This document shows positions 13,264-51,308 of a stretch of 51,308 nucleotides of DNA, one piece after another. How positions within the stretch are numbered: position 1 is the first letter of the stretch; each line of letters begins with the position of its first letter. A program made the translations under genes and the position numbers. This DNA is from an uncultured Deferribacteres bacterium (lineage in GTDB: Bacteria > Zhuqueibacterota > Zhuqueibacteria > Zhuqueibacterales > Geothermadaptataceae): assembly GCA_964014485.1 (NCBI GenBank), contig CAXHAT010000028.1:1-51308 (forward strand), given 5' to 3'. Under the pieces are notes generated by a model that made no database searches, had not been told where the DNA came from, and saw only the letters and a program-made list of their open reading frames with translations.

Positions 13264-13295
13264 GGTACTCTCACTTTTTTAAGTCAGGATAACTC

Positions 13296-13334
13296 AAAAA
13301 AACAAAAAGGCCGCTGTTACAACAACAGCAGCCT
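13296..13334 (-). terminator. Intrinsic terminator after the pseudo-receiver operon
   Basis: Minus strand AGGCTGCTGTT-loop-AACAGCGGCCT followed by a U-rich tract. Confidence 0.7.
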
Positions 13335-13363
13335 CGGGCTGATTCCGACAAAAATCGTTGAAA

Positions 13364-45133: not shown

Positions 45134-46177
45134 TTATGCAGCACGGATTTGAGCGTGATCTGGCTTCCGCGAACCGATGCGCAGTTCAAACTTTTGCTTC
45201 TTTGCTAAAGAATTTGAGCGTGTACTCTCGGGCCGAGCGAGCAAATGATTTGGGCCAGATGATTTACGCAGCTCCTTACCGAGAAATTGCGCCAAAGCTT
45301 CCATGCCGGTTTTCGGTACTTTTGCACGGCTTTCAGCCAGACTGTTGTAGTTTGTGTTCGTGTTCACGTCATAAGTAAATATTTTCCCTGAAGCGTTTCT
45401 GATGAACTCAATCCCGGCCGCTTCAATCTTGTTTTGCCGAAGAAACGTTTCGTATTTTTTGATCAATTCGGGGTGTGTGCGTTCAAAATGTTTGACGATT
45501 CGAAATTTCTCTTGTTGTGCATCCAGGTTGCAGGCGTCCGCCGGGCACAACTCAAAGCCGTCGGAGGTATCGACGCGTGCGGCATATAAAAATTTTCCCC
45601 CGATAAATTCGCATCGTGTGATGAACGGCTCGGGTGAAGCGATGTATTCCTGGATCAACCAAACGCCGTCGACCGGCTCTTCATAATTCGGGCTATTGAG
45701 AAATTCCTGCGCTTGCTGAATTGAATAAAAGAGCTGAACGCCCGCACCTTTGCCGCCGCGATTGGGCTTTAAGATAAAAGGCGCGGCTGTGAAGCGTATG
45801 ATAGAAGAAAGTATGTTTTCTTTGCCGACCACCGCCGCTGTTTTTGGCGTTTTAACGCCCGCTTCCTCCAGCGCTGCATACTGTTCAATCTTGCTCAATT
45901 CCAATTGCAGCGCACGGCTGCCGTTAATAATGCGGCGACCGTGTTTTTCTAACCAATTCAAAGTCAAAAAAGTCAGGTCAGGGGCAAATCGATTCCCGCG
46001 CGTATGCGCCGAAGCGCTCATCCGATTGTAAAACACGCCTTTGGGCGGCTCTTGCTCAAAAAAGACCGCGCCGTTGTTCAGGTTCCATGCCTGCCAAGGC
46101 AACTTGTGGGCGGCGAATGCTTGTTCCAGCGGTGAAATCCATTCTGGGTTCTCGTGCAAAACATAGATTCGTTTCAT
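45134..46177 (-). CDS. RimK/glutathione-synthase-like ATP-grasp ligase, substrate unknown
   Basis: NRMSAS, KPNRGGKGAGV, IQEYI, YDVNTNTNYN; GGAG RBS. Confidence 0.82.
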   Translation of the reverse strand: MKRIYVLHENPEWISPLEQAFAAHKLPWQAWNLNNGAVFFEQEPPKGVFYNRMSASAHTRGNRFAPDLTFLTLNWLEKHGRRIINGSRALQLELSKIEQYAALEEAGVKTPKTAAVVGKENILSSIIRFTAAPFILKPNRGGKGAGVQLFYSIQQAQEFLNSPNYEEPVDGVWLIQEYIASPEPFITRCEFIGGKFLYAARVDTSDGFELCPADACNLDAQQEKFRIVKHFERTHPELIKKYETFLRQNKIEAAGIEFIRNASGKIFTYDVNTNTNYNSLAESRAKVPKTGMEALAQFLGKELRKSSGPNHLLARPESTRSNSLAKKQKFELRIGSRKPDHAQIRAA

Positions 46178-46221
46178 TGATTACTCCATCGTGTGAAAAG
46201 TGGGTGATTTATTCGAGACCG

Positions 46222-46267
46222 AAATAAAAAAGCCCGCTGTCCGAACTTGCGCCGGACAGCGGGCTTT
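46222..46267 (-). terminator. Attenuator-type terminator 2
   Basis: Perfect 15-bp stem AAAGCCCGCTGTCCG/CGGACAGCGGGCTTT plus TTTATTT, between leader 2 and the ATP-grasp start. Confidence 0.85.
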
Positions 46268-46297
46268 AAGATTGATACGCTTAATTTTAGCGTTCTA

Positions 46298-46414
46298 TCA
46301 ACTGCTATTCAGCCTCATCAGACGACAACAGGACGCACGACAACACATCATACACATGCAACACATGCAGTGAATTGTCATGATCACGTTTTTGTCCTTA
46401 GCGGCTGTTGCCAT
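46298..46414 (-). CDS. Cys/Met-rich leader peptide 2 (38 aa)
   Basis: MATAAKDKNVIMTIHCMCCMCMMCCRASCCRLMRLNSS: 8 Cys, 7 Met; terminator about 30 nt downstream. Confidence 0.75.
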   Translation of the reverse strand: MATAAKDKNVIMTIHCMCCMCMMCCRASCCRLMRLNSS

Positions 46415-46523
46415 TTTAGCTTTGAATTGGGTTCTTAATTGATTCTCTGCGGCGATCCGAAACCGCCTTAATTGAATTGAACGCTTTAACACGTTGTAGT
46501 CCTTGAAAATTTCTCTATAACGC

Positions 46524-46562
46524 AAAAACCCGCTGTCGAAATGAATCGGCAGCGGGTTTTTT
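46524..46562 (-). terminator. Attenuator-type terminator 1
   Basis: AAAAACCCGCTGCCGA-TTCATT-TCGACAGCGGGTTTTT. Confidence 0.8.
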
Positions 46563-46599
46563 GTAGACTGTAAGCTTCTAATTGATCGCTAAATTCCCG

Positions 46600-46689
46600 C
46601 TACCCAAATTGCATAAAGTGCATTTTGCCCATGGAGCAATGCATCATTGCGACGGTCATTTGTGCGGGCGTGTAGCGGTAAGAAGTCAT
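46600..46689 (-). CDS. Met-rich leader peptide 1 (29 aa, absent from the ORF track)
   Basis: MTSYRYTPAQMTVAMMHCSMGKMHFMQFG*: 7 Met, 1 Cys; terminator about 38 nt downstream. Confidence 0.7.
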   Translation of the reverse strand: MTSYRYTPAQMTVAMMHCSMGKMHFMQFG

Positions 46690-46887
46690 CGTATATTTGA
46701 ATTGCTATATTTTCGGGAAAACCTTTTTTGATGGCGGGCAATATAATCCGGAACCGAATTGCGCGCAAACAATTTCTGCAAATTCTCTATTTTTCTGTGA
46801 AAGATTTGTGATAGTCAAAGCGTTATATTTTTTGATATTCAAAATTGAAAACCAGACTCTTTCGATTCTTAACCTTCGGAACGAACA

Positions 46888-47667
46888 ATGACAATGAAAA
46901 TCGCGCTCAGCGTCGGAGCAATGCTGCTCATTGGCGCAACAGCAACAAAGTTCAATAATCAACCGCTCGAAAGTACCGAAACCAGCGGTGACAACGGCAA
47001 TAAACCGTTCGCTGTGGTGGAGCTTTTTACCTCGGAAAGTTGCTCAAGCTGCCCTCCGGCGGATAAGTTCGCCGGGGAGCTGGCGGAAAAATATAAAGAT
47101 CAAAACGTTTATGTGCTCGCTTTCCACGTTGATTACTGGAATCACCTGAATTGGAAAGATCGCTTTAGCAAGCGCGAATTTACCGAGCGCCAGCAAGACT
47201 ATGGCCGCGCGATGCGTCTGCGAACCATCTACACGCCGCAAATGATTGTCAACGGCAAGACGGAATTCGTTGGCTCGCAGCGCAGCAAGGCGACGAGCGC
47301 GATTGCCGATGCACTGCAATCGGAAAAAGGAGCGCCGCTTGAGCTTGAATTGTCAAGCAATCCTTTATCGCGCGTCTGGCAGGTGGATTATAAAACCAGG
47401 TATGGTTTGCAAAACGCCGTGGTCAATGTCGCCGTTGTTGAGAACGATCTGGTGCGAAAAATCGGTTCAGGCGAGAATCGCGGATTGACGCTGCATCTTG
47501 ATGCTGTGGTCAGAAGCTTTGCCGCTGTAAACCTTAAAAAACAAAACAGCGGGACCGTCCGATTGGAGGTTCCAGATGATTTAAAACGCGAAAACAGTCA
47601 GATCATCGCTTTCGTTCAGGATCGAAAAACGCTCGAAATTTTAGGTGCGGCAAAGCTTGGGTTGTAA
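46888..47667 (+). CDS. DUF1223 family secreted thioredoxin-like protein
   Basis: VVELFTSESCSSCPPAD, FHVDYWN, YTPQMIVNG, GENRG. Confidence 0.88.
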   Translation: MTMKIALSVGAMLLIGATATKFNNQPLESTETSGDNGNKPFAVVELFTSESCSSCPPADKFAGELAEKYKDQNVYVLAFHVDYWNHLNWKDRFSKREFTERQQDYGRAMRLRTIYTPQMIVNGKTEFVGSQRSKATSAIADALQSEKGAPLELELSSNPLSRVWQVDYKTRYGLQNAVVNVAVVENDLVRKIGSGENRGLTLHLDAVVRSFAAVNLKKQNSGTVRLEVPDDLKRENSQIIAFVQDRKTLEILGAAKLGL

Positions 47668-51263: not shown

Positions 51264-51308
51264 CTGTCTCTTATACACATCTCCGAGCCCACGAGACTCC
51301 ATTGCATC
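51264..51308 (+). other. Illumina Nextera adapter read-through (artefact)
   Basis: CTGTCTCTTATACACATCT-CCGAGCCCACGAGAC, then 8 nt TCCATTGC, then ATC. Confidence 0.98.

Follow-up and report, generated by a model that had tools for sequence, protein, structure and literature searches.

For Trp, His, Leu, Thr, Phe and Ile/Val, ribosome-mediated attenuation is the textbook mode of control, whereas S-adenosylmethionine (SAM) riboswitches, T-boxes and protein regulators are held responsible for that of methionine. Here, we describe a leader in the genome of an uncultured Deferribacteres bacterium (Zhuqueibacterota), located on contig CAXHAT010000028.1, positions 1 to 51,308, the whole of which is referred to as the window. 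On its minus strand, two upstream open reading frames (uORFs) rich in Met and Cys codons, each followed by an intrinsic terminator, precede the gene for an ATP-grasp ligase. Judged from sequence and RNA folding models, the leader probably (at a probability of about 0.6) consists of two diverged, tandem ribosome-mediated transcription attenuators that make expression of the ligase depend on how much charged tRNA-Met and tRNA-Cys is available, i.e. on sulfur amino-acid sufficiency.

The leader resembles trpL, hisL, pheL, leuL, thrL and ilvL of Proteobacteria in that a short leader open reading frame (ORF) rich in the sensed codons and a terminator are placed before the structural gene, and its first unit has the alternative pairings 1:2, 2:3 and 3:4 of the classical attenuators, with segment 2 at the stop codon. 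Unlike these, it would sense both Met and Cys, it has two modules in series and an uncharacterised ligase as target, its host is uncultured and lies outside the Proteobacteria, and its second unit is without a demonstrable antiterminator.

Tandem attenuators and cysteine-sensing uORFs have both been described before. In the excerpted text of Lee and Groisman (2012; PMC3641672), the Salmonella mgtCBR leader with its tandem attenuators mgtM and mgtP is called a singular example: as in the window, one leader RNA contains two short ORFs, each belonging to an attenuation-like device that controls transcription into the coding region, and the mgtCBR signals, ATP and proline-charged tRNA, are additive. 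The modules in the window differ from those of mgtCBR in being paralogous, in each having a complete intrinsic terminator and in their overlapping sulfur amino-acid signals. The excerpted text of Canestrari et al. (10.1101/834739) describes a mycobacterial 'Cys ribulon' of polycysteine leaderless small ORF (sORF) attenuators that answer cysteine supply; these likewise have Cys-codon runs in an unannotated uORF that are read by ribosome stalling, but they are translational (unmasking a ribosome-binding site), leaderless and placed before cysteine-metabolism genes, whereas the uORFs in the window each have an intrinsic terminator and mix Met with Cys codons. As far as these excerpts go, they correct a preceding model-made annotation of the same DNA (the first-pass annotation), which knew of no described tandem arrangement of this kind. 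A search of the full-text literature, with subscription-only literature outside its scope, returned no description of a Met/Cys leader peptide that terminates transcription; what is new here is the serial arrangement of two paralogous modules and their target gene.

Organization of the leader

Both uORF units lie within the 710 nt between the ATP-grasp gene and a divergent DUF1223 gene (46888-47667, plus strand). The leader of the ATP-grasp gene takes up 530 nt of the minus strand in the order uORF1, terminator T1, uORF2, terminator T2, gene (Table 1); this order had been proposed in the first-pass annotation, and every element was recovered in its place. Both uORFs start with ATG and have an intact frame, and they lie 275 nt apart. 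Among its 28 residues, the uORF1 peptide has six internal Met (codons 11, 15, 16, 20, 23 and 26) and one Cys (codon 18); uORF2 encodes eight Cys and six internal Met among 37 residues.

Table 1. Features of the leader and its target gene, in the order of transcription (window coordinates)
Feature	Position	Strand	Description
CAATTCAAA motif	46696..46704	-	6 nt 5′ of the uORF1 ATG; invariant columns in the unit 1/unit 2 alignment
uORF1	46600..46689	-	29 codons; peptide MTSYRYTPAQMTVAMMHCSMGKMHFMQFG; stop UAG 46602-46600
Segment 1, CGCCCGCAC	46662..46670	-	uORF1 codons 7-10; pairs with segment 2 in the ribosome-free minimum free energy fold; 'protector' (anti-antiterminator)
Segment 2, GGGUAGCGGGA	46595..46605	-	Contains the uORF1 stop codon; 5′ half of the predicted antiterminator; complementary to the T1 5′ arm CCCGCUGCC
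T1	46524..46561	-	A-tract, 12 G+C-rich outer pairs, inner 3-pair stem, 6-base loop, U5; from the fold
CAATTCAAA motif, second copy	46421..46429	-	6 nt 5′ of the uORF2 ATG
uORF2	46298..46414	-	38 codons; peptide MATAAKDKNVIMTIHCMCCMCMMCCRASCCRLMRLNSS; stop UGA 46300-46298
CMCCMCMMCC	46340..46369	-	Ten successive Cys/Met codons (uORF2 codons 16-25); presumed stalling tract
T2	46222..46267	-	Stem 46267-46229, 16-bp perfect, 7-nt loop; U6-A-U3 tail; from terminator scan and fold
GGAG	46184..46187	-	Shine-Dalgarno-like motif, 6 nt 5′ of the ATP-grasp ATG; read from the sequence
ATP-grasp gene	45134..46177	-	Carboxylate-amine ligase, 347 amino acids, RimK/LysX-like fold; weak Pfam matches to RimK and ATP-grasp_3

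A composition scan of the entire 8.4-Mb assembly for ATG-started sORFs of 10-70 amino acids with at least six Met/Cys in 16 residues gave 71 sORFs, six of them outside long ORFs; the top two (scores 12 and 7) are uORF2 and uORF1. The genome has just two intergenic runs of five or more Cys/Met codons that include three or more Cys: one is in uORF2, and the other is an adapter artefact at a contig end. The Met/Cys richness of two neighbouring uORF-plus-terminator units is far from chance. When 1.84 billion protein representatives were searched exhaustively with the uORF2 peptide, no relative came up, and Pfam gave no match for the uORF peptides. An Rfam scan of 45800-47100 at E ≤ 10 returned only sub-threshold matches caused by the terminator hairpins and none at gathering score. 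Contigs from three DNA runs, all of one study, are identical to the window and show no strain variation.

T1 begins 38 nt past uORF1, has an own-arm duplex of -22.5 kcal/mol and is the dominant hairpin of the unit 1 fold (z -3.9). It is not listed by the consensus terminator scan, probably because the scan accepts only a simple stem with a 3-8-base loop. T2 begins 30 nt past uORF2 (own-arm duplex -31.6 kcal/mol; z of the unit 2 fold -7.0), and the ATG of the ATP-grasp gene lies 44 nt 3′ of its tail. In these 44 nt no promoter-like site was seen, so that the gene must be transcribed through T2; the independent promoter at this point that the first-pass annotation had considered is thus not apparent. 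Promoter-like sites in the region are not more numerous than in shuffles, and a promoter may lie between T1 and uORF2. One promoter-like match inside uORF2 (46374-46347), upstream of T2, was rejected as due to ATG/TGT composition. In both terminators (46524-46561 and 46222-46267), the stem is preceded by an A-tract and followed by a U-tract; plus-strand (antisense) transcription would therefore be terminated as well. A separate genome-wide scan caught T1 in its plus-strand reading.

A classical attenuator layout in unit 1

Segment 2 of unit 1 can form a duplex of 9 bp with the T1 5′ arm (-19.9 kcal/mol). This putative antiterminator was equalled by 2 of 1000 dinucleotide shuffles for the 124-nt upstream region and by 6 of 1000 for the 46-nt stop region. 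The influence of translation was modelled with a ribosome of 30 unpaired nt, from -15 to +14 around the A-site codon (an assumed footprint), on a transcript truncated 5′ of the T1 3′ arm. Segment 2 was masked only with the modelled ribosome at codons 25-30. The predicted gain of the antiterminator amounts to 9.3 kcal/mol at Met 11, 4.7 at Met 15, 3.9 at Met 16, 3.0 at Cys 18, 2.9 at Met 20 and 5.3 at Met 23, whereas it falls to 0.1 kcal/mol with the ribosome at Met 26 or the stop codon and is 0.8 in the absence of a ribosome. From sequence and folding, unit 1 appears to possess the complete layout of a classical attenuator with the 1:2, 2:3 and 3:4 logic of trpL. The first-pass annotation had proposed ribosome-mediated attenuation here, and this proposal is strengthened: the antiterminator is statistically supported, and its predicted availability is set by the position of the ribosome.

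Duplication and divergence of unit 2

The two units align with a mean column identity of 70%. Common to both are CAATTCAAA exactly 6 nt before the ATG, the stretch AGCG(U)AUCAAU after the stop codon, and near-identical terminator arms (CCCGCUG.CCG / CGGACAGCGGG); because of these shared elements the units are read as duplicated modules and, to judge by their sequences, are tandem duplicates whose codon content drifted apart later. At the place of GGGUAGCGGG in unit 1, the aligned unit 2 reads AAUAGCAGUU, which leaves about 5 bp of complementarity to T2. Owing to the likeness of the two terminators, a duplex of 13 bp (-23.1 kcal/mol) is possible between the T1 3′ arm and the T2 5′ arm. In the model, such cross-module pairing makes a relay conceivable, yet it is also an expected by-product of duplication.

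Proposed mechanism

With Met plentiful, the ribosome would reach the uORF1 stop codon and cover segment 2; T1 would form and transcription would stop. If the ribosome stalled on one of the Met codons 11-23, or on Cys 18, segment 1 would be covered or unwound and segment 2 set free; the latter could pair with the T1 5′ arm and allow the polymerase to read through. Without a ribosome, segment 1 would capture segment 2 and T1 would form. In module 2, for which the steps are inferred only, the Cys/Met run of uORF2 would be the stalling tract and T2 the second gate. T2 might be relieved if its 5′ arm were captured by the T1 3′ arm, which is freed in the read-through state of module 1; alternatively, T2 might merely lower basal expression.

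Because terminators in series multiply read-through, both gates would have to open for a full-length mRNA. The inputs overlap, uORF2 mixing six Met with eight Cys codons and Cys 18 of uORF1 falling within the productive stalling window, so that either shortage would be sensed, with Met dominant. A strict Met-AND-Cys gate, as proposed in the first-pass annotation, is hard to reconcile with this overlap; the device should rather read a general, Met-dominated shortage of sulfur amino acids.

The ATP-grasp family and the control of its orthologues

The ATP-grasp protein has a match to NCBIfam rimK_fam below the cut-off and sequence matches to RimK in the PDB at E about 1e-6. Its predicted structure (mean predicted local distance difference test score, pLDDT, 81.7) has ArgX, LysX, DcsG, Ddl, PsnB and RimK as Foldseek neighbours at 13-16% identity, all of them generic and without a clue to the substrate. 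With 7203 relatives at E ≤ 0.001 among 8000 candidates scored, the best non-self match at 61% identity, the protein belongs by sequence to a large uncharacterised family. A literature search on this family and its S-box operon found nothing relevant.

The search for orthologous loci gave 582 matches in genomes and 552 in metagenomes, of which the best 80 in each set were analysed; by record titles, 60 of the genome loci were labelled Bacillota and 20 non-Bacillota. A gene for an SfnG/SsuD-like flavin monooxygenase stands directly upstream of the ATP-grasp orthologue in 34 of the 60 Bacillota loci. This conserved monooxygenase-ATP-grasp operon was observed in Bacillales, including loci L013 (1760-3921), L055 and L030, its LLM flavin monooxygenase scoring below the SfnG cut-off. 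A SAM-I (S-box, RF00162) riboswitch is located 5′ of the monooxygenase gene, on the same strand, in 26 of these 34 loci, and at L046 one is found immediately 5′ of the ATP-grasp orthologue, bringing the genome loci with a same-strand upstream SAM-I riboswitch to 27 of 80. The Rfam gathering score confirms 26 of the 27 (6 of 20 loci in one scan, 20 of 20 in another), the call at L075 coming from the nhmmer profile only. Among the 20 non-Bacillota loci none was detected by nhmmer, nor by Rfam gathering score in the 11 scanned; the metagenome loci contain the riboswitch in 8 of 80 cases. Transcription termination is the known mode of control of the SAM-I family. The SAM-I leaders stand on the same strand ahead of Bacillales orthologues, as the leader in the window does ahead of its ligase gene, and they report Met/SAM status; unlike them, the sensor in the window would be a translated uORF and not a SAM aptamer RNA. 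Neither a SAM-I riboswitch nor a T-box was found in the organism's own whole genome, and 45800-47100 gave no SAM-I or T-box covariance match at E ≤ 10.

Other sensors precede further orthologues. In a Clostridium-labelled metagenome-assembled genome (L054, 1257-3936), a T-box (102 bits) is followed by an SDF-family transporter gene and the ATP-grasp orthologue. Its specifier may read UGC (Cys); the loop GAAGUGCC gives GUG (Val) in the other register, and the register is not fixed, nor did the excerpted text of PMC2494555 settle it. In two to three of the 80 metagenome loci (L168, L127 and L136), uORFs rich in Cys/Met and 35-38 codons long stop 100-118 nt 5′ of the gene; they contain GMMMCAACTCCC (eight Met/Cys in 16 residues), SMCDAMRCPCAC (six in 16) and CPRCCIC (four in 12), respectively. 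L148 and L162, the nearest relatives of these loci, end too close to the gene for a uORF call. Frames with at least six Met/Cys in 12 residues number two in the sense upstream regions and zero in three control sets (including antisense and downstream regions, about 69 kb each). No intrinsic terminator was seen in the uORF-bearing metagenome leaders, so their mechanism differs from that proposed for the window; they may be translational and represent an undescribed leader of the same gene family. The leaders of L127 (844-1068), L148 (1-147), L136 (426-642) and L168 (1977-2189) have in common UUCCCC...CCUCC(Y)GUCCCG.GGAC(R)GA and a hairpin close to the Shine-Dalgarno motif; between L127 and L148, one pair has changed in a compensatory way. 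The remaining neighbours of the orthologues are varied, and many have to do with sulfur or peptides (M20 peptidases, CysA, a Cys/Met pyridoxal phosphate (PLP) enzyme, DsrE, TauE, flavin mononucleotide (FMN) reductase, OppC, GFA).

Exchanges of riboswitches or T-boxes for leader peptides on orthologous genes are documented, according to the excerpted text of PMC2965389. The SAM-I riboswitches, the T-box and the Cys/Met uORFs before orthologues independently support the view that the uORFs in the window are sulfur amino-acid sensors. By analogy, they also support a place for the ligase in sulfur or methionine salvage, its product not being indicated by the regulation; the sulfur link suggested by the first-pass annotation thereby receives independent backing.

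Weighing the alternatives

Several observations weigh against two ribosome-mediated attenuators in series. The best pairing between the unit 2 upstream region and the T2 5′ arm reaches -10.9 kcal/mol, a value equalled by 548 of 1000 shuffles (674 of 1000 in a second comparison), and the predicted state of this arm is independent of ribosome position. Unit 2 thus has no significant antiterminator of its own, and the switching of T2 that the first-pass annotation assumed is not supported by the pairing models. The folding as a whole rests on thermodynamic models and an assumed ribosome footprint. Both uORFs are without a Shine-Dalgarno motif, but such motifs are present at only 28-39% of the long ORFs in the genome. 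Across 60 related genomes and the organism's own, the leader (713 nt) has no DNA relative apart from chance matches of 17-39 nt. The ATP-grasp gene is found in one of 167 genomes of the phylum (tallies that take in the unpublished genomes G016 and G023), none of the other 166 having it at E ≤ 1e-30. No Met/Cys-rich uORF stands near the gene in any of the 80 genome loci: a first scan matched only frames inside upstream genes, and a second gave four weak intergenic Met/Cys frames, all more than 800 nt from the gene. Conservation of the uORFs before homologues, which the first-pass annotation had named as a check, thus fails for the genome loci and is seen in no more than the two or three metagenome loci named above. 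Finally, we infer that Met shortage would also limit initiator tRNA, which opposes a Met-sensing uORF. As the ATP-grasp gene was not found in the other 166 genomes of the phylum and gave only chance-level matches among the 60 relatives, it looks acquired, together with its leader.

The two modules might instead form a relay, in which a Met stall in uORF1 lets the antiterminator form and so frees the T1 3′ arm; this arm, which matches the T2 5′ arm over 13 bp, would then prevent T2 from forming as an antiterminator acting at long range, while translation of uORF2 would modulate the outcome. This is a tentative and on the whole doubtful proposal.

A serious though unlikely alternative is that only module 1 works, and that module 2 is a decayed duplicate in which T2 is constitutive or leaky and the Cys/Met frame senses nothing. 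Decay of this kind fits the missing unit 2 antiterminator as well as the replacement of GGGUAGCGGG by AAUAGCAGUU with the few base pairs to T2 that it leaves; it would not lead one to expect that the ten-codon Cys/Met run is the most extreme of the genome and that its frame is intact. Moreover, a constitutive terminator with a 16-bp stem just 5′ of the gene would nearly silence it.

It is quite unlikely that each small ORF is a gene in its own right, with its own promoter and terminator, for a Met/His/Cys-rich peptide that binds metals or thiols (like metallothionein, or as a Cu(I) binder), the ligase being adjacent incidentally or co-expressed. Such genes would account for the strong terminator after each ORF, the common CAATTCAAA-N6-ATG could be an expression signal, and the motifs MxxMMHCxMxxMHxM and HCMCCMCMMCC..CC are reminiscent of metal-binding motifs. 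Against this stand the absence of relatives of the uORF2 peptide and of Pfam matches reported above and the lack of metal-handling genes among the neighbours scanned with Pfam. Peptide genes would also leave the unit 1 antiterminator that overlaps the stop codon unexplained, orthologues of the downstream gene carry Met, SAM or Cys sensors at the same position, and the ligase gene has no promoter-like site after T2.

The ORFs might even be incidental, the elements being small RNA genes or terminators under the control of an RNA-binding protein or an undescribed riboswitch. The two regions do fold far better than shuffles, and many RNA classes are undescribed, which would be compatible with the negative Rfam result. 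Two adjacent frames that happen to be the genome's richest intergenic Met/Cys sORFs would, however, go unexplained, as would an antiterminator placed exactly at the uORF1 stop codon, and this account is improbable.

That the small ORFs encode substrates of the ATP-grasp enzyme, i.e. precursors of graspetide-type RiPPs (peptides made by the ribosome and modified after translation) or a LysW-like carrier peptide, is very improbable, even though ATP-grasp enzymes modify ribosomal peptides and PsnB, ArgX and LysX are among the structural neighbours: a graspetide core peptide has Thr/Ser/Lys and several Asp/Glu for its ester or amide cross-links, which are impossible here because uORF1 has no acidic residue and uORF2 a single Asp; LysX, ArgX and RimK need an acidic C-terminus on their substrate, which neither peptide has; such a peptide gene is absent from 157 of the 160 orthologous loci; and terminators between precursor and enzyme genes would uncouple them.

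Other features of the window and related genomes

A second Cys-codon run lies elsewhere in the window. On the minus strand, at 13270-13351, four successive Cys codons (..ARGCCCCNSG..) occur in a TTG-started frame that extends over part of a terminator-like hairpin, namely its 5′ arm and loop; the hairpin is followed by U5-G-U7. The frame lies 55 nt before an operon of cystathionine beta-synthase / gamma-lyase type (13263-11890, 11875-10718), labelled from the translations and from cysK and Cys_Met_Meta_PP matches. Intergenic runs of at least four Cys codons occur only three times in the genome. The frame may belong to a second Cys attenuator, of a ribosome-occlusion type, or the hairpin may simply be the terminator of the upstream gene. 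Two further frames in the genome were examined and rejected: a poly-Cys frame on contig C135 proved to be the opposite strand of a reverse-transcriptase-like gene, at a stretch that encodes poly-Thr, and an MMMMM frame on contig C2, with a cold-shock gene on one side and a convergent ArsR-like gene on the other, is no leader.

At 51264-51282 (plus strand), the contig end contains an exact 19-base transposase-library adapter, which also occurs at the end of contig C6; roughly the final 50 bases of the window stem from an assembly artefact and contain no real ORFs. The divergent DUF1223 neighbour, matched in just 2 of 30 relatives, was of no use as a synteny marker. The window copy has an SCSSCP motif, and a DUF1223 homologue from a genome of the same family (L182, G001:C3:460144-460821) has one in-frame TGA inside the match, which may be a selenocysteine codon or a break.

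Implications

If two ribosome-mediated attenuators indeed operate in this leader, a Met-codon leader peptide with a full terminator/antiterminator switch would fill a gap in methionine control, and the cell would read its Met supply via elongator tRNA although initiation also needs Met. Should the relay between the modules prove true, a purely ribosome-read, two-stage sensor of sulfur amino acids would represent a new attenuator architecture. The ATP-grasp family would then belong to the core response to sulfur starvation, and phyla would differ in which of four RNA-level sensors they have placed before it: a SAM-I riboswitch, a T-box, or a uORF with or without a terminator. From the sequences compared here, SAM, Cys and Met appear to control this family of thousands of members in several phyla, in many cases along with an SfnG/SsuD-like monooxygenase, and its regulation points to an as yet unknown step of sulfur or methionine salvage.

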